DNA from: Catajapyx aquilonaris
Taxonomy: Eukaryota
Length of the DNA: 35,013 bases
Direction of reading: 5' to 3'
NCBI GenBank assembly: GCA_000934665.2
Contig: KZ539076.1
Location: 1-35,013, forward strand
Part shown: one piece after another, positions 1,193-28,166 of the stretch
How the letters are laid out: each line of letters opens with the position of its first letter
How positions within the stretch are numbered: position 1 is the first letter of the stretch
Translations under genes and position numbers: made by a program
Notes under the pieces: model-generated
The model's input: only the letters and a program-made list of their open reading frames with translations
What the model was told of the DNA's origin: nothing
The model's database searches: none

Positions 1193-4100
1193 CCCGGAGA
1201 TATCCAAGTCCGTACCAGCCCGGATACCAGGACTACGAGCACTACCCGCCCGTGTCCGGGGCAGAGTACCCGTACAATGCAGACCCTTACGCCCCTGCAG
1301 GCTACGTGCCTTACAGGGAACCCGGGGTGCCAGTGACCGCCCCGGAGCACGCCCTGGGGGCAGGGGTCGGGGTCGGAGTCGGAGTCGGGGTCGGGGTTGG
1401 AGTGGCCTATGGAGAGAGACCGCCCACACCTCCCAGTCCCAGCGAGAGGAGCGAATCGCCGCCGCCGCAACAAGGTCGAGGTCAGTGTGGGGTCTGCATG
1501 AGAGGTCATCTCGGGTCAGCTGCATGCAACCGAATTTAGTGTTTAGTGATTTGTTGAGACTTGAAACATTTCATGTACTATATCGCTCAAAAAGATAGAG
1601 ACGATTGGCATTTGATTCAAGTGCAAGTTGCACTTGAGTCAAATGCAAAATCGTCTCTATCTTTTTGGGCGATATAGTACATACAGGGTGGTCCAAGTTC
1701 AAGTGTCGTTTTATAACGGCGATTAATAGAAGCGCTTAACGATGACGTAGCAGCGACGTGTAAAATTGCCCACTTCGATGGCGCCGAAGATGCGCCGACG
1801 TGGGACATTTTACGCGTCGCTGCTACGTCATCGCAAAATCACTGCTATTAATCGCCGTTATAAAACGACACTTGAACTTGGACCACCCTGTATTTAGTTG
1901 CTGATTTATTTTCAAAAATTATTAAAGTACAGCCCTATAAATGGGACACTCGAGTCATCTCGGTGCTACGTTTTTAGTGGGGGGGTGTCGGATTACGTAC
2001 GGTAATACCTTACCAAATGCAATTATTTTAGATGCACCCGTTAACTTCACGTTAGGGGGGCATGGTAGGCAAAAGCGTCATTTCCATCTGCAGGAAATGA
2101 ATAATTAAACCTAATGCCAGGTAATGGATAGGCGGACTTGAGGCGCGAAAATGCCTCCCTCCCGTTGCGACTGGAGCGATAGTGATATAAATCGAGAATC
2201 GATTCTTTTTTTTCTCTCTCTCTCTCAATTCGAATCACCAAGAGACGCTTCACTTTCTACTGATGGAAAAGTGCAAATTCGGGTTCTAAAGGTAGAAAAA
2301 AATTTTAAAGACGAGGCTAAATGATGGACTACTTCATCCTAGCTACACCCCCCCCCCCCCNNNNNNNNNNNNNNNNNNNNNNNNNNNNNNNNNNNNNNNN
2401 NNNNNNNNNNNNNNNNGGGGGGGGGGGGGGGGGGGGGGGGGAACTGCTATTATGGGATAGGCTAACAAAATGCTGATCACACTTTTGAGACTTTTTTTTG
2501 GGGGGGGAAGGAAGTTGGGGAAGCTTGAGACCAGGATCTGTTCTAAAACCCTGGTTGCACTCGACAGGCGGGGAAAGACTCTCGCCGAATTTTTAATGGC
2601 TGGAATTTGCTTGTACAGGGTGTAATTTGAGGTCTTACTTCAGACGCGTCTAAAATCCGTTGTGGGGTAATTATGGCCTGTGTAAAAAGCATAGAAATAC
2701 AGGGTGGTCCAAGTTCAAGTGTCGTTTTATAACGGCGATTAATAGCAGTGATTTTGCGATGACGTAGCAGCGACGCGTAAAATGTCCCACTTCGGCGCAT
2801 CTTCGGCGCCATCGAAGTGGGCAATTTTACACGTCGCTGCTACGTCATCGTTAAGCGCTTCTATTAATCGCCGTTATAAAACGACACTTGAACTTGGACC
2901 ACCCTGTATTACTAGCAGAGGAGACCGTTCTTCGCATGGCCGTGCGCATGGTAATGTAATCAGCAACAATCGCTAATTGTTTTTCTTTTCCGCCATGGTA
3001 ACTCGTTGCCATGGACAACCAAACAAACTTTCCATGTTATACATAATTATATGGTGAAATATGATTAAAATTCTTAGTTGTCTGACAGGCCCCCCCTTTA
3101 TACGGTATTGTTCGTTCGACGTTTCCGATTGGCCGCCGTTCCGAGCCTGCGCAATGGGGGAAGGCAGCGCCTCTGGTGGATGAAAGGAGGAATTAGTGTA
3201 TGATTAGAATCCTTCGTTGCATGACCGAGACTTCTGATTTTCTCGCCGTACATTACGCGACGCTTCCGATTGGCTTCCGTTCTGCGCATGCGTAATGAGG
3301 GAAGACAGCTCCTCTGGTGGGTGATCGGAAGAAATAGTATACATAATTATGTAAGAAGATAGAGACAGTGTTGGAATGAAAATGGAAAATTGTGCGCAAA
3401 TTACATCACTATTACACAGTAATTGTGTCACTTTTATTGTCATCACAAAATAGGGTGACATTATTGCGAGGTTGTCGCACTGTCCACCCACCACCTTTTT
3501 CTCTCTAAAAAAAACTGCAATGACACTTAGCCAACTTTTTGCAATTCCGCTCGGTATCGACGTAAAGCTGTTCAAAAGTTTCTTTTATTCCGGTCCTTTT
3601 TTTTTTTTTTTGGCCAAATTTTTTGGCCTGCCCTCTCGTTCCATTCCAGTTTTTTTTCTCCCCCTCTCTAAAAATCTGGTTCCAACTTGGCAAACGTACC
3701 GCTCGACACAGCAGATGCGAGAAAACGGAACCGATGAAAGATGTCGCACTATGCGATAAGACTTATTTTCAAGCGTTCGATAAAACCGAATTGTGGGACT
3801 AGTATTAAACCGAATTGGTGGTGGGCGGACCGGAAATAAGACTCCGACCCTCACTTTTCCTGATAGGAAGTTGCTAGTGTCAGGACACTGCACTGTAAGA
3901 AGAATCGGTAATGGACGCTTTCAGTCGTCCCCATCCGTTTTACACTATTTTACTGTCGGATCATTTTGTTCCGCGTTTGGAACAACAGAGACGTCTTCCG
4001 GTAGCGTCCTGAACTAGATCTGAAGCTGAAATGGACGGTATTATGCAATAATGAGTCAACCCACATGAGATCAGTTTTGTGAAATTCAGTGTTCGTTTCG

Positions 4101-15436: not shown

Positions 15437-16263
15437 TGTGTGTGATTTTTTGTGTGGATGATTTGTTTTTCCTTTTTTTTTATATATAGTGCAGGCAGAT
15501 TTTAAAAAAGAAGAAAAAGAGAGGCATTTTCCAATATTGTCGTTATGAAATCTCTCCGCCAACTGATGGGACTTAAAGGAGAGATTTTTTTTTTCACCTC
15601 AGAAGAGCCATTTTGGAAGAAAAAAAAAAGATGGAAAAGAGGGGGTGCTGCCATGGTTTGAAGAAAACATTTTAACGGGAACAATGTTTGGTGCAATCAG
15701 GTTCCGAAAAGAAAATAATATGAAAGATGGATTTTGCAAAATGAGGGTCACAAAGTGTTCCAAAGACTCCTGCATTTCTCCTATTTGCTCTTGGCTTGAA
15801 CATTCCAGTCTTGCCATTTTTTTGGGTTTTATTTCCAAAAAAAAAAACNTGTGTGTGATTTTTTGTGTGGATGATTTGTTTTTCCTTTTTTTTTATATAT
15901 AGTGCAGGCAGATTTTAAAAAAGAAGAAAAAGAGAGGCATTTTCCAATATTGTCGTTATGAAATCTCTCCGCCAACTGATGGGACTTAAAGGAGAGATTT
16001 TTTTTTTCACCTCAGAAGAGCCATTTTGGAAGAAAAAAAAAAAGATGGAAAAGAGGGGGTGCTGCCATGGTTTGAAGAAAACATTTTAACGGGAACAATG
16101 TTTGGTGCAATCAGGTTCCGAAAAGAAAATAATATGAAAGATGGATTTTGCAAAATGAGGGTCACAAAGTGTTCCAAAGACTCCTGCATTTCTCCTATTT
16201 GCTCTTGGCTTGAACATTCCAGTCTTGCCATTTTTTTGGGTTTTATTTCCAAAAAAAAAAAAC
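15437..16263. repeat. ~412-bp near-identical tandem duplication around a single N (likely unmerged contig overlap)
   Basis: 15437-15848 and 15850-16263 appear to differ only in homopolymer lengths; N at 15849. Confidence 0.85.
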
Positions 16264-17003
16264 AAATATGTGATGGGGATTTTTTTAAATATTGGGGGCC
16301 AACCCAGCAACATGAACATTGTAAAAACTGGTTTTAATAGAAAATCAACCCCTTAAAAAAAAAATCATGGTGCCAAAGGTGGGGGGAGAGGGTCGCGAGC
16401 CTTTTTTAAAAAAACAGAAAATGCGGAACGTTTGCGGATTTGGAAGAGAAAAAGAGAGCGTACGGCTTCCATTCCCTGCACCCGAAAGTGATTCATACTT
16501 TTTACTTTTAACGCGCATTTTTTAAAGGAGACTTGCATCACCGTCCAGCAGTTTTTTCCAGGCAGAGATGTGGGCTGAGCTTTGCATTGAGATTTTTTGA
16601 AACCAGTTTTTACCATGTGTATGTTACATTTCCACATGTTCCCAAAAATATATATATACTGGAAAAAAAATTCACTTTGTTTTTTTTTGGATGGAAATAC
16701 TTTTTTCCTGCTAGGTCATTCCAAGTAATGGGTAAATAGGCTTTCAGGGTGTTCAAATTTTCTTTACTTTTCCAATTTACCAAAACTTGTACGACTCTGG
16801 TTTCAAAGCGAATGAAAGATTTTTTTTTTTTTTCATTACGTGTTTCTTCCAACGAAATTTTTGATTGTTTAACGTGGTGGTCTCAAAAGATTCTTTATGT
16901 AAAGTACAGTATTGTGTGTATCGTGTACATCCTATGNCCCCCCCCCCCTCTTTTTTTTTGGTTTATTACAGAAACAATGTAACAGTACCCAAGGGTAGTA
17001 TAT

Positions 17004-17361: not shown

Positions 17362-18005
17362 TTAGTGCCTTCGCTTCCTTTTCCTAGATGGCTTGGAGCG
17401 GCGCTGCTCGTTTTCCTGCTGGGCTGCCCAGGTGAACAGGTCATCGGGGCTGGTCTTCCTGCTCCAGTCTTGCACTGGAAGGGTCACTATGGTTTTGGCG
17501 GCGAAGTCGGGGTATTTCACCACGTCCATCGGATTCTCCTCCTCCTCTTCCTCGTGCTCCTTGTGCTTGGCCTCCTTCCCAAAGTAGCAGTAGGCCGGAG
17601 ACGAGAAGATGCCGCCGGTCCGATAGGCTGCCAGGGACTCCCTGTATTTGTCCAGCGCATTTTCGTAGAAATGCACGTAGTAATCGTGTGGCTGGATGGG
17701 AATAGGCTTCAGCAAAGGATTGGGCAACTCGGACATCTTGTCCACCTCTGCATCCTGCGGAGTAGCCCGGTCAGTTGACATCTAGTGAAAATCCAGAGAA
17801 TTACATTTGAAATGTAAAGCGGTTACGCTTACAGAAGCTATTTTTTAAATACGTACAATATCTATCTGTTTTGAATTAGTGCCAAAAATTGCGGACTGTT
17901 ACGGGCAATTGGATCATGGCTTATGGAATTGTCACTTGCCACGGAAGTAAATGCAGGACTTACGTGACTCAGCGGCTTTTTTGCGACAGGGGGTTGTCCT
18001 GGCAT
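17362..18005 (-). CDS. Orphan array gene A, 153 aa, two exons
   Basis: Exon 1 18005-17964 (MPGQPPVAKKPLSH|gtaagt); exon 2 17781-17362 after ...cactag. Acidic run EEEEEENPMDVV, basic tail RRSKPSRKRKRRH. AATAAA near 17256-17261; X-box-like GTTGCCATGTAAC at 18100-18112. The most divergent member. Confidence 0.75.
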
Positions 18006-18247
18006 TGTTGGATATTGCGTTGGGTTTTACACTGATAAAATTTTAATGAAGCCCACGTTTCTTTTCAAGAACAATTTTGAATCCTTGTTGACTTATTACG
18101 TTGCCATGTAACCGAGCCAAGGCTGCCAACAAAGAAGAGTACTGACATCACAATGGCAACAATATATTTATTGATCATATCCTCTTTGGTGTATATTTCA
18201 GACAAAAATTTTTCTCCAGATTATTTTTCTCGGACAGCATCTCTTCA

Positions 18248-18587
18248 CTATGGTTCATCCGTGTCCATCTCCATGACATGTGATGGTCCTCCACCGTCAG
18301 CTTGCTTCTGTCCACCTGTGTTGTCGGACATGTCCTTGTTGCGGCTGGACTCACCACCACCAGCCCTTCCGGATCGGTAGCATTCTGACACAACATGAGC
18401 CGCAATAGAACTTAGCTTCTGGAGTCTCCTTCCCGTGTACTCCCCATTCTGTGTCCAATCCATCTCATCTACCATCATGGGCTCCTGATAATAATTACAC
18501 ATGCCTAATCAGCTTATTTCCTTCAAAATTTGCAAGCGGGACAGTTACCTCACTCTGGGGAGTCGTGTTCATTTCTTGGTCCGACAT
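18248..18587 (-). CDS. Orphan array gene B, 91 aa, two exons
   Basis: Exon 1 18587-18549 (MSDQEMNTTPQSE|gtaact); 64-nt intron; exon 2 18484-18248 (EPMMVDEMDW...MEMDTDEP*). Confidence 0.82.
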
Positions 18588-18636
18588 ATTTTTCTGGAGA
18601 CGATATGCTGGTTCTGTGACAATGATTTGTTTAATT

Positions 18637-18649
18637 GTTGCCTGGCAAC
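18637..18649. promoter_or_regulatory. RFX X-box (GTTGCCTGGCAAC) 50 bp upstream of the gene B ATG
   Basis: Exact fit to the GTNRCC-N0-3-RGYAAC consensus. Related motifs lie upstream of all ten array genes. Confidence 0.7.
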
Positions 18650-18812
18650 TACCTTGTAAATAATGTTGCAATAATTTCTGGCTTCTGTATGGCCTTGTCT
18701 TGCTGTCATTATACTATAGACTTTGGTGTAAACATATTTTTATTTCCCAACAGGATGCATCCAAGACTATAACTTCAGCATATCACACCGAACATATGAA
18801 CATCCGGCATCT

Positions 18813-19242
18813 TCACCTGGAACGTTGTTTTTCTTTCTTGGACTGCATCATCTTCCTCTTCTTTTCCACTGGCTCATCATGTTCCTCCTCCTCCATGTCC
18901 ATTGCCTCACCACCACCATCAGTATGCTGCCCACCATCTGTGGTGTCGGACTTAATGCAGCCAGCCTCATCATCAGTACATAGATTGCTCTCCCTCATTA
19001 GCCTCAGTCTGAACTCTAACTGTGCACGACGTATGAGCTCTTCCTTCTCTAACGTTCCCCACATGACTTCATCCTCCGTGTCCTCCTCCCTCTCATCTGA
19101 ATCCCATGAGTCCTGGTATACAAAAGGTTCCGGTGGTTCCTCCTCATCCTGAACGATGCAATTTGGACAAATATTTGGAGTCTGAAGTAATTGGATGGGA
19201 AGAAGATTGTGGACTTACCGAAGATTTATCATTGATGTCCAT
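18813..19242 (-). CDS. Orphan array gene C, 119 aa, two exons
   Basis: Exon 1 19242-19219 (MDINDKSS|gtaagt); exon 2 19148-18813 (DEEEPPEPFVYQDSWDSD...EKKRKMMQSKKEKQRSR*). Its segment SDTTDGGQHTDGGG...MDMEEEEHDEP is homologous to gene B SDNTGGQKQADGGG...MEMDTDEP. Confidence 0.8.
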
Positions 19243-19624
19243 ATTTTCAGGAGCGGACAATATTCCACTGCCGATTTTTGTACAGTACTGGTACTGTACA
19301 ATTGAGTGCTTATTCACCCGGTGTTGCCTGGAAGCATGTTGTGTCCTAATTGAAAATGTGCAAAACTGGAATTTAATTGTGCCTTATTTTAATATTTTCA
19401 GAACAAAACACGAGCCGGAACCAACTTATTCTGAAACGTTTAGTGCATGGTTCAAAAGTGTTTAATTTTGGTCGGATTGGCAACCGACTTGGACCCAACT
19501 TATTACCCAGAAATTTGGGCTGTTCCTTCTAATGTCCAAGGGACCAAATAAAGGCCAACTTCAAAAACATCCCTACTAATTAAATAAATAAATAAATCAG
19601 TCTCCATGGAATTTAATTGTCCTA

Positions 19625-19805
19625 CACAGGAATTTCATAATGAAACATTTCAAATCCAGGTTTCTTCCAAGACCTCCCAATTAATTAATTTTAAATGGAT
19701 AAAAATAAATAAAATTTTCTACCAAGGCGCAAGGCCCCACAATTAAGGAGCAATTAATTAATTATGAGACCTGAATTTGAAATGCTTCATTACAAAATTC
19801 CTGTG
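19625..19805. mobile_element. ~180-bp MITE-like element with ~40-bp TIRs, between genes C and D
   Basis: CACAGGAATTTCATAATGAAACATTTCAAATCCAGGTTTC pairs with GAGACCTGAATTTGAAATGCTTCATTACAAAATTCCTGTG. Confidence 0.72.
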
Positions 19806-19955
19806 CATCTGACATGTAAATGCCAGTGTAAGTAAAGGATAAATTGCCTTTTATTACTGCTGCAATTAAATTTGAAATCAGCTGGTTTTTCAATCTGGTT
19901 TATTCCTCAAGCACTCATAAATTTTATTTTGACAGAATCCACTCCCGAGCACACA

Positions 19956-21217
19956 CTATTTTTTTGGATATAATCTTGATGGTATTTTCCTTCCAGATCT
20001 GCTGCCTTGACCTCTGACGTGGCATCCATCATCCTCCGAATCATCGTCATCCATTGGTGGCGTAAACTTTTTCTTATCATTAAGAAGCTTTACTTTGAAC
20101 TCCTCGCGCTTCTTGGCCAGATATTTTCCGAAATAAGTGGCCTTACCTTCCTCGTCATCATCTGACCCATCACTGTCCAGGTCATCCAGGTCATCCGGAC
20201 TATCCTTGCTGGTTTTCCACTCCCCAAGATACCTCTTCTTGACCTCTTCATGCTTCAAGTCAAGGTAGCTTCCAGGTGGAGAGGGATCAGCCATCCACTT
20301 TACTTCAACGACCTTTGGATTAATGGCAAGTTTGTTCTCTACAATCTCTCCAATAGATTTCTTTCCGATCGCTTCATACTTTAAGGCAAAGTAGCTGCCT
20401 GTGGATGATGTAGACTTCCACTCTCCTTCTTCAGCTGGCTCATCGTCGTTCATGGCTGCCTGAAGCACCTTCTGTTTCAGATCTTCAAGCGCCTTCTTTC
20501 TCCGTTGTTCACGTCTCAATGCGAAGCTATTACGAGGTGCCTCACCGCCACCAGCTGTACGCTTGCCTTTACCATTCTCAGGCTTCTTGGCCTGCACACT
20601 AACGTCTCTCTTTGTAATCTTCTCACGAGTCATTCTGATCTTTTCATGCTTCACAGCAGAGGGGTTGGCGCTGGAAGAAGGCCTACTTGCACCAGCCTTC
20701 TCTTCTTCTTCTTCGTCTTCGGGCTCCTTTGGGATTTCCTGCTCTTTCTTTTCCAACTTATCAAGAGCCTTCTTTCTGTTCTCTTCCAGCTTCAAGGAAA
20801 AGTAGCTGCTGGTTGAAGATGGACGAGCGCTACCAAACTTCAACTCTCGTTCGTCGTCATCAGTGCCGTCGTCATCTGAAGCATCGTCGTCAATGCCGTC
20901 CGGAATTGGTTCCTTTTTCATGTCCTCAGGAGCCTTCCTTTTGCTTTCTGCATGCTTCAAGCTGTCTGTGGTAGAGTGTTTACCACGACCAGCCTTTGTA
21001 GATATGTTGAATTTTTGAGACAGTAGTTTTAGCTCCTGTGCTTTCTTTTCCAACTTGTCGCGATGCACCCGATTGTGACGACTCTGGCCCTTCTTCTTCA
21101 CCTTAATGGGCTGCTGATAAATTAGAACGCCATAATTAGCTTCTCTCCTTCAAAATTTGCAAGGGGCGCTTACTTTACCTTAGTACGTGGAGTAGTCGTG
21201 TTCTCTTTGCCAGACAT
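19956..21217 (-). CDS. Orphan array gene D, ~398 aa, two exons, internally repeated Lys/Glu/Asp-rich protein
   Basis: Exon 1 21217-21179 (MSGKENTTTPRTK|gtaaag); NAGNAG acceptor (cagcag); exon 2 21113-19956 is an open frame of 385 codons with repeated SYFxLKxEExRKKxL motifs. Confidence 0.88.
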
Positions 21218-21613
21218 ATTTAGGGAGAGGCGTGGGAAGCTGAATTCTGTGACCAATTTGGTTTGCTGCTTATTTAAATTTTGCATGCCTGGTAACGACC
21301 AAAGAATGTTATGTTGTTTTACATTGTTGTATATTCTCTCATCATGGCTCCAATTTTTAGGGGGAAAAAAATGAAGAATGCAGTATTTGTAGAGTAAAAT
21401 AATGTGAAAATTGTACTGCACTGCCACAATCGATTTGAATTGCGTCGGTTTTAATCGCATTTATTTGTCAAACAGAGAGGTTATGAAACATATCAAATTA
21501 GGATTTACTCCCAAAGCCCACACATTATTTTGTGTGTGTCGCACAGTCCGGAATGGTCTTGTTGTTGGGCCACCTCCAGCACTGCTGTCTTGGACCTTTG
21601 ACCCCACCCTCCT

Positions 21614-21960
21614 CTAAGTCCCCTTGGTCCCTTCTTCCATGTTCTTTGGCTCATCGAGGAGATCCTTCTTGTCCTTCTGAGCCTTCTCATCAAGTGTAGG
21701 TGGAGCCGGAGCATCCTCCTCACCACCACCTCGGACCAATAGTTGAGCTACCTTAGCCCCTAGGTTACACAAAGCCTTGTGGTAGTTGTACGCATCAAAG
21801 TAAGGATACTCTGGATGTTCCTGGTCCTCGACATCCTCCACCTTCAAGGGCTGCTGATAATAATTAAGACATGTTAATCAGCTTCTCTCATACATAACTT
21901 GCAAGAGAAAATAGTTACCGGTACCTCACTCTGTGGAGTAGTGTTCTCTTTGCCAGACAT
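21614..21960 (-). CDS. Orphan array gene E, ~91 aa, two exons
   Basis: Exon 1 21960-21925 (MSGKENTTPQSE|gtaccg; alternative in-frame donor 6 nt further on); exon 2 21853-21614 (QPLKVEDVEDQEHPEYPYFDAYNYHKALCNLGAKVAQLL...). Clear paralog of gene H. Confidence 0.87.
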
Positions 21961-22285
21961 TTTTAGAATGAAGAGAGATATGCTTATGGAGGGAAAATGA
22001 TTTGTTGTTTATCAGAAATAATTGTATCGGCCTAGTAACCATCTGGTCATGAGTGTTGTATAAATTGTTGAGTCTGTTATAAGTCGCATTTATTTGCAAA
22101 ACAAGCAGGAATTATATTCTGACACAATTAAAATCATGAGCCACACCCCCAGAGTTTGTGATCTTTTCGAGCTCCCTGCAGAATGGCTGTCTTGACCTCT
22201 GACCTGGCCTCCTCTTAACCACTCTTGGTCTCCATTTATATCCTTTGGCTCATCGTATAGTCAGTGCCTGCAATCTTCTTTTTTT

Positions 22286-22598
22286 CTATTCATCACGAGT
22301 CTTCCTGATCTTCCTGATTTGTTCACTCTTCCAGAATTCGTATGAAGAGCCATCTTCATCATCACCATACTTTGTGTTGTATTCTTGCACCATTGTGCCC
22401 AGCTCCTTCAATCTCTTTTCCAATGTCTTCTTGGCAAACTGCGCTCGATCATGAATTTTTGGTTTCTCCTCGTTCACCTTCGTGGGCTAACCGATAATAA
22501 TAATGACATAAATCAGCTTCACTCATACACATAACGTGCAAGAGGAGATAATGGCTTACCTCACTCTTGGGAGTAGTGTTCTTCTCTTTGTCAGACAT
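22286..22598 (-). CDS. Orphan array gene F, 79 aa, two exons
   Basis: Exon 1 22598-22560 (MSDKEKNTTPKSE|gtaagc); exon 2 22486-22286 (PTKVNEEKPKIHDRAQFAKKTLEKRLKELG...). Confidence 0.82.
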
Positions 22599-23078
22599 CT
22601 TGTAGGGAGATGTGCTGGAATAATTCTGTGACAAACGTCAGTTGTTGATAGAAATTGGATTTCCCTGGCAACCAACTGGTCAAGTATGTTACATATTGTT
22701 TCACATCGTTAGAATATTTTTCTATAAATACTTTTGATCGACTTCGTCCATGCGATTTTATGCACGTTATTATGGAATGTATGGATATTGTGTGATATCG
22801 ACAAAATTGTGTGCTAGAATTTATTTCACCAATATCATGGTACAGTGTGTGCTATAGTTTCTGTGGAAGTAAAGGATAAAATGCCAGCTGTCGCCAATCA
22901 ATAGAAAGTGAATCGGTTTCAATATAATTTATTTGTTAAACGCACAGATTTTTAAGCATTTCAAATCAGGATTTACTCTCAAGCACACACATTAATTTTT
23001 TGTTTTGGTTTTTAGTACAGTCCGGAATGGTCTTGTTTGTGGGTCGCCTCCAGAACTGCTTGACCCTATGACCATTTC

Positions 23079-23395
23079 TTAACCACTCTCATTAGTTTCT
23101 TCTTCCATGTCCATTGGCTCATCGTCTCCCTTGGCTTCTGGGATATACTTGTCTGTCTCAGCATTCATCTCGAACTCTTCCAGCTGAGCGAGCAAGATGC
23201 CATGTTTCTCCTCCAATATTTGAGCTATCTTGTTCTTTAGGTCTATTATCTTCTCAAGATATCCTGTGTGGGACTCCTAATAATAATAATTAGATACCTT
23301 AAAGTTTCTCTCCTTCATATAATTTGCAAGGGGGGGGGGGGAGAGAAAATATTTACCTCACTCTGGGGAGCAGTGTTCTCTTGTTTGACTGCCAT
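23079..23395 (-). CDS. Orphan array gene G, 78 aa, two exons (absent from the ORF track)
   Basis: Exon 1 23395-23357 (MAVKQENTAPQSE|gtaaat); exon 2 23276-23079 ESHTGYLEKIIDLKNKIAQILEEKHGILLAQLEEFEMNAETDKYIPEAKGDDEPMDMEEETNESG*, homologous to H (LEEFE..AETDKKDIPGAKGD). Confidence 0.85.
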
Positions 23396-23549
23396 CCTTT
23401 AGGGAGTTGTGCTTGGAAGTCGAATTATCTTGTAGAATTTTATGTTGTTTGTCGAATTGAGCCTGCTTGGTAACGTTCATATTGTTGTGTGTTAATATCG
23501 TTGTCCTGGTGACAGGAATTGTGTAATGATCAATCTTGAAGTGAGCGAG

Positions 23550-25448
23550 TTATGAAATGTACGGATATTTTGTGTGCGTCATGGACTGGTTTATTTTCGC
23601 CTTGTTTTTGCAATGCTGCTTACATGAATTGCACCACAGTTCAATACCGATCGCCATCAAGGACAGGGCGATTCCAAATAAATAAATGAAAAACGTGCCT
23701 TCATACCTATGAAGCGACAGTCTTATTTCGCCTTCAGAATAGTGTCCTCCACTTTGTCTGGTGGCTCTGGCTACATTCAAGTGGTGCAGATGAGCCAGGA
23801 AACTACTTCTCTTTTCCTTCAGACCAATCGACTCAAACACTTGCATCCAAAAGTTGATGTTCTCTGAATACACGCTCTGTTTGGGCAAAGCAACAGAATG
23901 GTATATGAGGGCCATGTGGTCTCTGGATGTTATAGTCTTGCGATCGTCGCACTTTCGAGATGATTCGATCGCACTTTGTATCCGATACCCTGTGCTCATG
24001 CAGACGTGTCTCTCTGTCAGCATACCGTCGACACACTCTTTCATATCGTCTGTCTGAATAGAATTGTCCAGAAATTCACGGTACTTAACCTTGGTGTATT
24101 GGTCCATGTTGGCCAACATGCCTTCGTACACTTGGCGCTCCCAAATGACTTGGAAATCTGATGCACACAGTTCGTCCAGACTGTTTGGGATTGTTTCTTT
24201 CGGAGGCGACATTAGGAAGTTGAACAGGTTGCTCTTGTATCCTGTGGTGAACACTATTGAAAAGCAGATTAGGAGGAAGAGAAAAATACGTGACGATGAC
24301 AACACAACGGTTTTCTGATGCTGCTGATCAAACAGTATCCGTACCAGACTCAGCAGCACAGAGTCGCAACTTTTGTATCGCCGTGATTGTGATAAAAAAC
24401 GTGACTGAACATAGTCTGTCATACGCATTTGCAATGCGCATACAATAAGCGTAGTAATGAAACAAATCCACGGCACTGCTTGGTACGGAAGGATTAATAA
24501 AATATGTGGAGTTATTATAGGTAGAGGTTGTCGACTCACGAAAGTCAAAGGGTTGACTTCTCTAGTTGCAGCAAAGTCCACCACTTGAAGCATCAATTCA
24601 AGCTGCATTATGTCCAACAAGTATGGTATCTTACCACTCTTGATGTCAGCCAAGAATTCCAATCCGGTTTTAACATCTGTGACAACATCGATGAAATCTT
24701 GTCGTCTGACCTTCCACTTGAAATTGAGCGCTTGTCCCAAAAAACAAAAGTGAATGTACACCACGTAAGGATCGCAATTAGTGTAATTAGTTTCCTGGTA
24801 ATAATACGTGCTGTTCCATAACAATCCATTGAAGTTCCTTGCAGTGTCTGGAAACAGGGTTTGCAGTGTTGGCAAGCCTTCAAACGAGTAGTTGCCCAAC
24901 TCAACAATAGCAGGGCTACCATTGTTGCAGAAGAAGCAAGTTGAGTGCAAGTGTTGTTTGGTCACTGCGACTTTGTACTTGATTTTGGAAACATGATCTT
25001 CCAAAAGGTAGTTCACATCATCTGAGTCTCTCAGCCAAAAGATGAAGCGATCTTGGTTCTTTTTGGTGAGTCCCACCAGCTGGTCCATTAGTGACTCGAA
25101 ATTGTCGGAACAACTGGTGACAACATGGATCGAGCAGGAATGAGTCGGACTGGTCCAATAATCGTCCGAATCGTCCAATTCGAACGATTCGGAACAATTC
25201 AGTGAACTAAGTGCGTCGGAATTCCTTCTGATAATCACTGGTCTTCCTGTGAATGTCACAAAATTGTCAATAATGGACACTGGAACTGAACCGTGTAGGT
25301 CGTGAGTGAAAACCAGTGTACAATCAGGAGGAAAGTTTCTGCTCACAAGAAGTCTGACGAATGACAAAATTGGTGACATCTGTTGCACGACACTGATGCT
25401 GGAGACTGACATTTGAAGTAGGACGAAAATACCTGTTGACGAAATCAT
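23550..25448 (-). CDS. Divergent ionotropic receptor (IR, iGluR-related chemosensory receptor), intronless, ~632 aa
   Basis: Hydrophobic N-terminus; LFPD..RNFNG before S1; VDF...LTFVSRQP; M1 LLILPYQAVPWICFITTL; pore segment LLSLVRILFDQ; SSRIFLFLLICFSIVFTTGYKSNLFNFLMSP (xYxxNL motif); PNSLDEL; terminal TM LSLHRYEGTFFIYLFGIALSLMAIGIE. First ATG at 25448; the track start at 25469 is a GTG. Confidence 0.9.
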   Translation of the reverse strand: MISSTGIFVLLQMSVSSISVVQQMSPILSFVRLLVSRNFPPDCTLVFTHDLHGSVPVSIIDNFVTFTGRPVIIRRNSDALSSLNCSESFELDDSDDYWTSPTHSCSIHVVTSCSDNFESLMDQLVGLTKKNQDRFIFWLRDSDDVNYLLEDHVSKIKYKVAVTKQHLHSTCFFCNNGSPAIVELGNYSFEGLPTLQTLFPDTARNFNGLLWNSTYYYQETNYTNCDPYVVYIHFCFLGQALNFKWKVRRQDFIDVVTDVKTGLEFLADIKSGKIPYLLDIMQLELMLQVVDFAATREVNPLTFVSRQPLPIITPHILLILPYQAVPWICFITTLIVCALQMRMTDYVQSRFLSQSRRYKSCDSVLLSLVRILFDQQHQKTVVLSSSRIFLFLLICFSIVFTTGYKSNLFNFLMSPPKETIPNSLDELCASDFQVIWERQVYEGMLANMDQYTKVKYREFLDNSIQTDDMKECVDGMLTERHVCMSTGYRIQSAIESSRKCDDRKTITSRDHMALIYHSVALPKQSVYSENINFWMQVFESIGLKEKRSSFLAHLHHLNVARATRQSGGHYSEGEIRLSLHRYEGTFFIYLFGIALSLMAIGIELWCNSCKQHCKNKAKINQSMTHTKYPYIS

Positions 25449-26109
25449 TTTAGGAAGAAAATTGAGCACAGAAATCCTTCACAGCGCACATGATAGATTT
25501 TCAACGATGAAACTAAGTCCTTCGTGAAATACCTGTAACGCACTGACTATACGTGTCATGAATATTTTGTGTCTATGATGACAAACATTATTCTGTGAAT
25601 TCGACATCAATCACAATGAACTGTTTCATCTTTGAAGCGGAACATGTACCCACGAATGAAATCGTTGAGCATTCCAAATGCTGAAGGTTGTAACCCATGG
25701 TGATATCGACAAAACTGATATTCACTGTCAGCATTTTTGCGCTCATTTATAGCTCAGAATTGAAGCTATTGAATATCAGAAAAAAAGCTAGAGTATTATC
25801 AAGTGATAGTGAATTTTCATACCACCATTTTCCTGCATTTCTTTTACGTGGTTGAAGATTAATTTTACCAACATCACCATCATAATTATAAAACTTGCAT
25901 TACTTAGTTCTTTGGAAGTAAAGTTACTGCAACAATATTGAGTCGGGTTTCAATCGAATTTATCTGTCAAACACACACAGGTTTTTAAAAAACATATTAA
26001 TTCAGAATTTCGCCCCAAACACAGACAATAATATTTTTGATTATCGCACAGTCCAGTTGTTGAGTCACATCCAGCACTCCTTCCTTGACCCCATTGACCC
26101 AACCTTCTC

Positions 26110-26490
26110 TTAACCCTTAGACCCTCCTCCAATGTCCTTTGGCTTCTCATCGCCTTTGGCTCCGGGGATATCCTTCTTGTCAGTCTCAGCACGAGTCAAT
26201 TTCTTCTCGAACTCTTCCAGAGTAGGTATAGCGTACGAGATGCCCGGGTCCTCCTCGCCAGTGGCAATGAGTTGAGCTACCTTGGTCTTCATGTTCCTCA
26301 TGGCCTTCTGGTAGTTATACTCGTCATAGTAAGGATGCTCAGTGTTTGGCTGTTCCTTCTCCACCACCACCTTCTTGGACCCCTGATAATAAATTAGATA
26401 CCGTACCTTAAAATTGTTATCTTCAAGAATTTAAGAGGGGAGATAATATACCTCACTTTGTGGAGGAGTGGTCTTCTCTTTGCCAGACAT
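26110..26490 (-). CDS. Orphan array gene H, 103 aa, two exons
   Basis: Exon 1 26490-26452 (MSGKEKTTPPQSE|gtatat); exon 2 26382-26110 (GSKKVVVEKEQPNTEHPYYDEYNYQKAMRNMKTKVAQLI...). Confidence 0.87.
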
Positions 26491-26618
26491 CTTTTAGGGT
26501 GATTATAAGATGTGCTGGGAAGTCGAATTCTCTGGAACGTGTGTTGTTTATCGAATTTGTACTGCTTGGTAACGACCTTGACAGTTGTTAACATTGTTGC
26601 GTATTTTTTTGTAATGTT

Positions 26619-26632
26619 GTTGCTCTGGTAAC
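26619..26632. promoter_or_regulatory. X-box-like element upstream of gene H (second, distal site)
   Basis: GTTGCTCTGGTAAC. The homologous distal site upstream of gene G is GTTGTCCTGGTGAC at 23500-23513. Confidence 0.55.
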
Positions 26633-26774
26633 AGGAGTGACGAACTATTCAATGAAAGTCCTCACGATGTTGTGTTTCAGTATAGTAAATATTTATTAGA
26701 AATTTACATGACTTTTCGTCCATTTTCCACACGTAAATTATTCTTGCTCAGCAGCATTTCCTGTCCTATACGTT

Positions 26775-27107
26775 TTAATCGGTATCCACCTCCATCGGAG
26801 TCGAATTGTCGACTGATGTCCCAGTATCAACATTCTTGTGGACACCAGCCCTTCCATAATATGGATTGTTGGCTGCCAGTATTGTATTGGCTGCAAGACC
26901 ATCCGCCTTTTTCTTAAGACGCTCCAACTTTTGCTTGAAGTAGCTCATGAACTTCAAGTGACCATCGAATGAATTGGAGTTTCTAATCATTGGCAGTGTC
27001 TGCTGCACCTCCTGGTCCACCTCCATGGGCTGCAGGTTATTGCAAAAAAAAAAAAGCTGTCAAGAGTCAAGGTTTGACATAATATTGTCACTTACCTCAT
27101 CAGTCAT
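26775..27107 (-). CDS. Orphan array gene I, 88 aa, two exons
   Basis: Exon 1 27107-27096 (MTDE|gtaagt); exon 2 27029-26775 (PMEVDQEV...FMSYFKQKLERLKKKADGL...TPMEVDTD*). Confidence 0.8.
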
Positions 27108-27445
27108 GGTTTTAGGAGCTGTGAATATAATTCGATGCAGAATGCTGATTGTGCAAATAGTAATGTTTGTTGACTGGAATTCGCATTGTCTGGCAACGCA
27201 CTGTCTTATTTTTTTTAAGGATAACATCATTGTATCATTGTAATTCTGTAACAATACATTTTAATCATCCTAATACGCAGGCATTGGGTAAATATAACCA
27301 TCTTTATTCACATTCTCTAATGATGATTAAATTAGCTCATTATTGTATATGGTTCACTCAATCCCTTGATTTTTTTTAGATAAAATCGCATGATATTGTT
27401 GCAATGCTGCCGGAATTTAATTCAAATATCTTGTTAATTTAGTAA

Positions 27446-27947
27446 TTATTTTTCACGATGGCGCTTCCATGGAGTGTCTGTTTTTTCCTCCAGTTGCTGC
27501 TGTTGCTGCTGTTCCTGACCTCCAACGTCCTGGATGCTCATCCTGTCGTTCGGAGGTTGCATGGCAGGAGCATTCTGTCCGCTGCCTCCCTCGGTGTCCA
27601 GGTCCATCAGGGACGTGTTAGTCCGTGACCCTTGACCCTGCTGCTGACCATCGAAGCTGAAGGGCTTGGACCAACGATAGGTCAGTGGCAGGCGTTGTTG
27701 CCTGTAGGAACTAATGATGCTGTCGCACCAATCACTGACCGATGTCTGATGTTCAGGAGACGGTGGAGCACCATCTTTGTCCACATCCATAGGCTGATTT
27801 AAAAATAATAATAATTATGTATAGTCGTAGACATATACTGGTACTGTCACACTGCGTTTCAACCGTTGCGATAGGAGACGTGGAATTGGAGGAACTTACC
27901 TCTGACTCCTCGGATATTACGGAGTTATTGCCCTCAGGAAAAGACAT
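27446..27947 (-). CDS. Orphan array gene J, 131 aa, two exons
   Basis: Exon 1 27947-27900 (MSFPEGNNSVISEESE|gtaagt); exon 2 27793-27446 (PMDVDKDG...LMDLDTE...QQQQQQLEEKTDTPWKRHREK*). Confidence 0.8.
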
Positions 27948-28166
27948 TTAAAATTTTTTTGTAATTTAATTTTGAGATGGAAAATCAGAAGGCAAAATTA
28001 TCTGTGTTCTTGAAAATTTTGAGCGGTTGTTGAACAATTTTGTTTGCCAGGAAACGTAACAATGTGCCTGGCCGATTGTGTGATCAGAGAGGTAATAATT
28101 AATTGACATTTATTTATTTTATTTATTTATTTGACACATTATTCCACATTTTTGGGGTGGATAGCA

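Follow-up and report, generated by a model that had tools for sequence, protein, structure and literature searches.

An X-box-like element upstream of ten tandemly arrayed genes of Catajapyx aquilonaris

Do the short, similar strings that precede every gene of a tandem array form a regulatory element, and which protein is likely to read them? The question is raised by contig KZ539076.1 of Catajapyx aquilonaris (assembly GCA_000934665.2), of which positions 1 to 35,013 of the forward strand, the whole stretch of 35,013 nt that was analysed, are referred to here as the window. It contains ten small genes, designated A to J, for which two-exon models were built on the minus strand from the reverse-complement sequence, upstream being towards higher plus-strand coordinates. 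A first-pass annotation had placed a motif resembling the X-box, the target of RFX transcription factors, in front of each of them. The analysis described below suggests that GTTRCCAGGCAA(C) is a selected proximal-promoter element common to the ten genes of a fast-evolving tandem family, and favours RFX as the factor that would bind it.

The element and its conservation

Twelve strings had been listed as copies of the motif, and all twelve are present, each once in the window and at the position assigned to it. They comprise one primary site for each gene and a second site in front of G and H:

Site A, 18100..18112, minus strand: GTTACATGGCAAC in gene orientation; proximal half exact; ends 94 nt upstream of the modelled ATG (18005)
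Site B, 18637..18649, minus strand: GTTGCCAGGCAAC; perfect palindromic X-box with a 1-nt spacer; ends 49 nt before the ATG at 18587
Site C, 19323..19335, minus strand: GCTTCCAGGCAAC; proximal half exact; ends 80 nt before the ATG at 19242
Site D, 21284..21296, minus strand: GTTACCAGGCATG; distal half exact; ends 66 nt before the ATG at 21217
Site E, 22027..22039, minus strand: GTTACTAGGCCGA; the weakest site; distal half in agreement with reverse-complemented RGYAAC; ends 66 nt upstream of the ATG at 21960
Site F, 22660..22672, minus strand: GTTGCCAGGGAAA; distal half exact; ends 61 nt before the ATG at 22598
Site G, 23462..23474, minus strand: GTTACCAAGCAGG; distal half exact; ends 66 nt before the ATG at 23395
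Second G site (G2), 23500..23513, minus strand: GTCACCAGGACAAC; 2-nt spacer; fits RYYRYY N1-3 RRNRAC on both strands; aligns with H2
Site H, 26561..26573, minus strand: GTTACCAAGCAGT; distal half exact; ends 70 nt before the ATG at 26490
Second H site (H2), 26619..26632, minus strand: GTTACCAGAGCAAC; 2-nt spacer; a 14-mer that fits GTNRCC N0-3 RGYAAC exactly
Site I, 27185..27197, minus strand: GTTGCCAGACAAT; distal half exact; ends 77 nt before the ATG at 27107
Site J, 28043..28055, minus strand: GTTTCCTGGCAAA; a single mismatch per half; ends 95 nt upstream of the ATG at 27947

All ten primary sites are 13 bp long and consist of two hexamers and one spacer base. They begin 62–108 nt and end 49–95 nt upstream of the modelled ATGs, with motif centres at 56.5–102.5 nt, in agreement with the earlier claim of a motif 50–100 bp upstream of every array ATG; G2 and H2 are 14-mers centred at 112 and 136 nt. 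At least one half-site (GTNRCC or the reverse complement of RGYAAC) is exact in nine of the ten primary sites, the exception being J, and both halves are exact only in B. The exact half is the distal one in D–I and the proximal one in A and C, and the spacer base of eight sites is A, that of sites A and J being T. Since either half can relax and the spacer can be A or T, there is no strand constraint across lineages, as for a symmetric dimer site on double-stranded DNA. Information content is about 1–2 bits at nine of the twelve motif positions and mostly below 0.7 outside, and no other block upstream of the ATGs is strongly conserved. In D–J (seven of the ten promoters, including the non-alignable I and J) an AATT block is found exactly 3 nt past the 13-mer, for example at 21277–21280, and with this block the conserved element may be about 20 bp long.

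The first-pass annotation had suggested checking the motif by a search upstream of the ATGs against background. Such a search was made with an expectation-maximisation finder of our own, which allows one site per sequence on both strands and was run blind on the ten 200-nt upstream regions. Its top motif, GTTRCCAGGCAA / GTTaCCAGGCAa (widths 10 and 12), is made up of exactly the ten noted sites, all on the gene strand and at -62 to -108. At width 12 the log-likelihood is 58.6, compared with 34.9 ± 1.1 (maximum 37.3) for 12 dinucleotide shuffles and 37.5 ± 4.1 (maximum 45.4) for 12 sets, each of ten 200-nt segments drawn at random from the window. When the ten-site matrix is run over both strands of the 35 kb, one extra placement scores at least as high as the weakest training site, at 27556, inside the coding sequence of J. 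The motif is confirmed as going beyond chance within the limits of a 35-kb background; binomial and Poisson figures overstate significance where the ten promoters are treated as independent. After masking, the finder returns AACAATRT and GCAACAATAT, with log-likelihoods of 23.5 and 31.8 and at varied positions, and TTGTCACAGAAT, whose log-likelihood of 44.1 is driven by the paralogues B, D and F.

The degree of independence among the promoters was assessed by local-alignment z-scores for the 80 nt upstream of the motif and for the stretch between motif and ATG. The six promoters of B and D–H are paralogues of one another (flank z-scores of up to 10), and those of A, C, I and J align convincingly with nothing (z mostly below 2, the highest being 3.2, 3.2 and 2.5). 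By these alignments the ten promoters amount to about five independent lineages. The annotation had stated that the motif is also kept by A, C, I and J, the members with flanks that cannot be aligned, and this is borne out: a matrix derived from B and D–H ranks the noted site first within -30 to -150 of each of the four genes. Background windows score as high in fractions of 0.025 for A, 0.0185 for C, 0/1511 for I and 0.0185 for J, with a Fisher combination of 7.6e-6. Blind searches also bring the noted sites back from A, C, I and J together with B (log-likelihood 35.8 vs 25.5 ± 1.7 for shuffles, maximum 28.9), from the four together with F (33.3 vs 25.4 ± 1.6, maximum 28.4) and from the four alone (26.4 vs 22.3 ± 1.4, maximum 24.4). 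A 12-mer that has been kept in place while the flanks and the coding sequence decayed points to selection, and on this comparison of promoters the element is very probably real and selected.

The factor likely to read the element

The comparison of the motif with RFX rests on published consensus strings. The one quoted in the first-pass annotation, GTNRCC N0-3 RGYAAC, is that attributed to Emery 1996 for human Rfx1 in the available part of PMC3414849. Its best match carries one mismatch in A and G and two in the other six promoters that lack an exact copy; up to one mismatch is found in 4/10 promoters and in 21/762 background windows, and up to two in 10/10 promoters and 188/762 background windows. 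The form RYYRYY N1-3 RRNRAC, quoted in PMC4168999, has 26 placements in the window, six of them in the ten promoter windows, which occupy 3.5% of the sequence. Exact matches to this form are present in 5/10 promoters vs 105/1511 background windows, the match in J being another string (28026–28038) and not the noted site. The fly variant RYYNYY N1-3 RRNRAC is found in seven of the ten promoters, with nine placements vs 1.76 expected, and the stricter variants RYYVYY..RRHRAC, GYTNYY..RRNRAC, GYTRYY..RRHRAC and RTNRCC..RGYAAC in five, four, three and two, respectively. Far from the array, at 3005–3019, there is a palindromic X-box-like string, GTTGCCATGGACAAC, that fits RYYRYY N3 RRNRAC on both strands and adjoins a repeated open reading frame (ORF) found at 1620–1838 (minus strand) and 2752–2973 (plus strand).

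The Drosophila dRfx X-boxes described in the available part of Laurencon 2007 (PMC2375033) resemble the array sites in several respects. They are of the same GTTRCC-N-RGYAAC palindrome type, they occur as single sites at a similar distance from the ATG (here the sites start at 62–108 nt), and the site is conserved where its flanks are not. Table 2 of that paper places the conserved X-boxes of dRfx-dependent genes mostly 56–146 nt upstream of the ATG, and those of four dRfx-dependent genes with 1-nt spacers at 66–141 nt. Site B is letter-identical, on the plus strand, to the D. pseudoobscura site of GA14573 given in the same source, and Rfx factors are described as typically acting via a single upstream X-box (PMC3414849, in part). 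The two cases differ in that fly conservation is seen among orthologues and that of the array among paralogues, and in that the fly targets presented in PMC2375033 are conserved ciliary genes, such as those of intraflagellar transport (IFT) and the BBS group, whereas the array genes have no detectable relatives.

A second motif lies close to several of the sites. Exact, sense-oriented matches to the forkhead-type string RYMAAYA occur 7–14 nt downstream of the element in A, E, F, G, H and I, that is in 6/10 promoters and 3/5 lineages:

GTCAACA, 18086..18092, minus strand: 7 nt downstream of site A
ATAAACA, 22006..22012, minus strand: 14 nt downstream of site E
ATCAACA, 22643..22649, minus strand: 10 nt downstream of site F
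ACAAACA, 23446..23452, minus strand: 9 nt downstream of site G
ATAAACA, 26545..26551, minus strand: 9 nt downstream of site H
GTCAACA and ACAAACA, overlapping, 27164..27174, minus strand: 10 and 14 nt downstream of site I

Background anchors have such a match within 0–30 nt, a window chosen after seeing the data, in 279/6204 cases, which gives p = 8.5e-4 by lineage. One strong half-site with a close Fox motif near the start site is what characterises the Rfx/Fd3F targets of fly chordotonal neurons, as far as the available part of Newton 2012 (PMC3414849) describes them. In these targets, too, a strong RGYAAC half is paired with a degenerate second half, and RYMAAYA lies within a few nt of the X-box, both being near the gene start. 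The array differs from them in having an exact RYMAAYA in only six of the ten promoters, where it could equally be a weak TATA-like box, and in its orphan proteins; the fly targets named in that source encode axonemal dynein and TRPV channel components. Related pairings are those of RFX with FOXJ1 in vertebrates and of DAF-19 with FKH-8 in C. elegans (PMC10393296).

The reading favoured here is that the element is an X-box, which the organism's RFX would bind as a dimer, one half-site being strong and the other relaxed. A forkhead factor would act with RFX in most members, on RYMAAYA 7–14 nt further downstream, and transcription would start within the 49–95 nt between site and ATG. For the RFX site with its forkhead partner and start-site position, the sequence evidence tips the balance slightly in favour. 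A number of observations weigh against this reading. The wording 'X-box-like' in the first-pass annotation is apt, most sites having one good and one partial half, and the strict likeness does not extend beyond B and H: exact copies of GTNRCC N0-3 RGYAAC in the window are limited to site B and H2, or two of the ten promoters. In D–J the relaxed half has kept the inner GGCA and lost the outer AAC, and in RFX logos the outer bases are the more informative ones. The introns of the group formed by B and D–H can also still be aligned, which makes the selection argument weak within that group, and its six sites amount to roughly one event. The background comes from one 35-kb window only, and the array proteins are without ciliary or other annotation. 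A, D and E match none of the five fly variants (PMC2375033), and the available part of the same source cautions that dRfx dependence cannot be predicted from the mere presence of an X-box in front of a gene and that conservation discriminates.

Three other explanations were considered beside binding by RFX. The motif might have been carried along passively by tandem duplication, with no function of its own, as might be expected from the clear paralogy of the B and D–H promoters (flank z up to 10) and from introns so alignable that conservation inside this group proves little. In A, C, I and J, however, the flanks cannot be aligned and the proteins are only 13–24% identical, yet the 12-mer is kept 62–108 nt from the ATG, with background fractions of at most 0.025, and directly beyond the motif the information content drops to background. 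Passive carry-over is the least probable of the explanations. A place in the transcript, with a start further upstream and the 12-mer serving as an element of the 5' untranslated region (UTR), has a precedent in the translational control element (TCE) of the Drosophila Mst(3)CGP testis genes, described in the available part of PMC3439415. These small, clustered, fast-evolving genes all carry an invariant 12-nt element at a fixed 5' place, +28 in the transcript. In the array, the motif search placed all ten sites on the gene strand at both widths, 10 and 12. The Mst(3)CGP element is A/T-rich (ACATCNAAATTT), unlike the G/C-containing palindrome of the array. TCE-like strings do occur in promoters A (ATTAAAATTT at -42) and J (CTCAAAATTT at 27993–28002, -76 from the ATG, identical to the TCE sequence printed in that source), but matches to the ATCNAAATTT-like element are not enriched, being found with up to one mismatch in 2/10 promoters vs 68/1461 background windows and with up to two in 6/10 promoters vs 550/1461. 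Palindromic decay fits recognition of double-stranded DNA, the central base is T and not A in A and J, with no strand constraint across lineages, and upstream poly(A) signals about 50–90 nt before the sites of A, B and E leave little room for a promoter beyond the motif. A 5'-UTR element is regarded as highly improbable.

More serious is the possibility of a selected cis-regulatory site for a factor other than RFX, perhaps lineage- or germline-specific, that would recognise GTTRCCAGGCA, its likeness to the X-box being partly coincidence. The central CCAGGCA is among the best-kept letters, seven of the ten sites have lost the outer AAC of their second half and strict X-boxes are present in only 2/10 promoters. 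The AATT exactly 3 nt past the 13-mer in seven promoters suggests a longer composite site, and the gene products show no link to cilia. Such a factor has to be reconciled with the perfect X-box palindrome of site B and the exact 14-mer X-box of H2, and with the finding that either half can be exact in independent lineages, which indicates a symmetric dimer site. Sites of the NFI, STAT, EBF and CTCF types are not known to follow this palindrome, and no other factor with this palindrome is known to us. Moreover, sequence, spacer and ATG distance match validated dRfx sites in the available Table 2 of PMC2375033. Recognition by a different factor is considered rather unlikely, and the X-box bound by RFX is retained as the favoured reading.

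The array genes, their products and their surroundings

The genes of the array follow one plan, with an exon 1 of 12–48 nt, a GT donor, a short intron and a single long exon 2. In B and D–H exon 1 encodes peptides similar to M-S-G-K-E-N-T-T-P-Q-S-E. For C, E, H and I the acceptor given by the longest ORF was doubtful and family-like frames were used instead. Exon 1 and the ATG of gene A are a model; if the real start is at 17781, the motif would be about 320 nt upstream. The gene models are as follows:

Gene A, 17362..18005, minus strand: exon 1 of 42 nt, intron of 182 nt, exon 2 from 17781; AATAAA 100 nt past the stop
Gene B, 18248..18587, minus strand: two exons with a 64-nt intron; AATAAA 75 nt past the stop
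Gene C, 18813..19242, minus strand: two exons; splice acceptor uncertain
Gene D, 19956..21217, minus strand: the longest gene of the array; internal repeats in the 385 aa encoded by exon 2
Gene E, 21614..21960, minus strand: exon 2 in the frame of ORF 21614–21877
Gene F, 22286..22598, minus strand: two-exon model
Gene G, 23079..23395, minus strand: two-exon model
Gene H, 26110..26490, minus strand: exon 2 in the frame of ORF 26110–26430
Gene I, 26775..27107, minus strand: two-exon model
Gene J, 27446..27947, minus strand: two-exon model

In nine of the ten genes AATAAA or ATTAAA follows 24–191 nt past the stop codon. The genes are tightly packed, the motif lying 135–620 nt past the stop codon of the next gene upstream (for G the distance is 2,635 nt and spans the receptor-like gene described below), and the sites of A, B and E are only about 50–90 nt past the poly(A) signal of the upstream gene. 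The element occupies the short interval between the poly(A) signal of the upstream gene and the ATG. Such geometry fits a proximal-promoter element, provided that promoters do not extend into the 3' ends of upstream genes.

The encoded proteins are small and rich in charged residues, with N-termini that by eye are hydrophilic and without signal peptide. Their exon-2 portions are 13–24% identical to that of A, with a mean column identity of 23%. A model of A made with AlphaFold2 consists of two helices at low confidence (pLDDT 67, pTM 0.24). No Pfam match was obtained for the six array proteins tested, no relative of exon 2 of A by word-index search and no usable match in a protein atlas search with the array proteins. 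A metagenome protein scan yielded 598 pattern matches, no relative of the array proteins being among them, and a metagenome DNA pattern derived from exon 1 gave 0 matches. Exon 2 of H had a sole match in a full HMMER scan, to a repeat protein of 2035 aa (E = 1.3e-4), which on reading was judged a low-complexity match and set aside. The neighbouring ORF of ionotropic receptor (IR) type likewise matched nothing in the databases searched for relatives, so these databases probably cover this taxon poorly and the blanks for the array proteins are weak evidence. A recurring peptide, P-M-[DE]-[VM]-[DE], is present in exon 2 of A, B, C, G, I and J, at the start of the exon and/or near the C-terminus, and in gene I as PMEVD at both ends (27015–27029 and 26784–26798); it may be a short linear motif.

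The IR-type ORF lies between G and H (23550–25478, minus strand). Its single exon encodes 642 aa that match Pfam Lig_chan weakly (E = 7.3e-7, slightly below the gathering score), and it is probably a variant ionotropic receptor. This ORF and the M14 carboxypeptidase and JHBP-like neighbours carry no copy of the motif when the whole window is searched with the ten-site matrix; the JHBP and IR-type neighbours fit an arthropod. In the unusually long spacer between D and C, a 40-nt inverted repeat (19625–19664 and 19766–19805, arms 88% complementary and 101 nt apart) looks like a miniature inverted-repeat transposable element (MITE), and a tandem-repeat scan of the array gave nothing relevant. Elsewhere in the window, a T homopolymer of about 540 nt (418–955) and a 56-N gap (2361–2416) are probably assembly or low-complexity features, and a direct repeat with near-identical ORF fragments (15567–15899 and 15990–16334) is probably a repeated element.

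Expression of the array and its place in an RFX regulon

A position-constrained X-box-type motif shared by all members, including A, C, I and J, makes co-regulation of the array, as the first-pass annotation proposed, a fair inference, and the genes are probably switched on together. The array would then be a co-regulated battery in cells that express RFX. Judging from the fly, its site of expression would more likely be ciliated type I sensory neurons than male germ cells. The sole arthropod pointer found to Rfx-driven testis genes is Vandaele 2001, which, going by its title, reportedly concerns spermatid expression. In the mouse, RFX drives a gene battery in differentiating male germ cells, that of the RFX2-dependent spermatid genes, through a vertebrate paralogue (PMC4498915 and PMC4745085, both in the parts available). 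Of the tissues proposed in the first-pass annotation, testis or spermatids on the one hand and ciliated sensory neurons on the other, the testis half is the weaker one for arthropods; the TCE, an element of fly testis genes, shows no enrichment in the array promoters.

Taken as a whole, the locus might be a young tandem array of ten small, largely disordered and taxonomically restricted proteins under an ancient RFX (and forkhead) module, as part of the ciliated-cell programme of sensory neurons or sperm, a broader view that is put forward tentatively. The element is a further case of a known kind of promoter element, and among the matches listed in literature searches none reported X-box control of a tandem or orphan gene array. 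If RFX does not bind, the array offers a new and well-delimited 12-bp site of another factor. If it does, the ten promoters provide as many readouts of how far an X-box can relax and still be retained, ranging from the perfect palindrome of B over sites with one exact half to J, in which both halves carry a mismatch, and a regulon whose other known members are deeply conserved ciliary genes would gain a lineage-specific family. The motif indicates where expression might be sought, in chordotonal and chemosensory organs or in testis, and it supplies a compact promoter of about 100 bp that would be suited to reporters. The broader view, if true, would point to lineage-specific components of arthropod sensory cilia or sperm, and would be a natural case of young genes that joined an old regulon and remained in it through a retained 12-bp site while all else changed.

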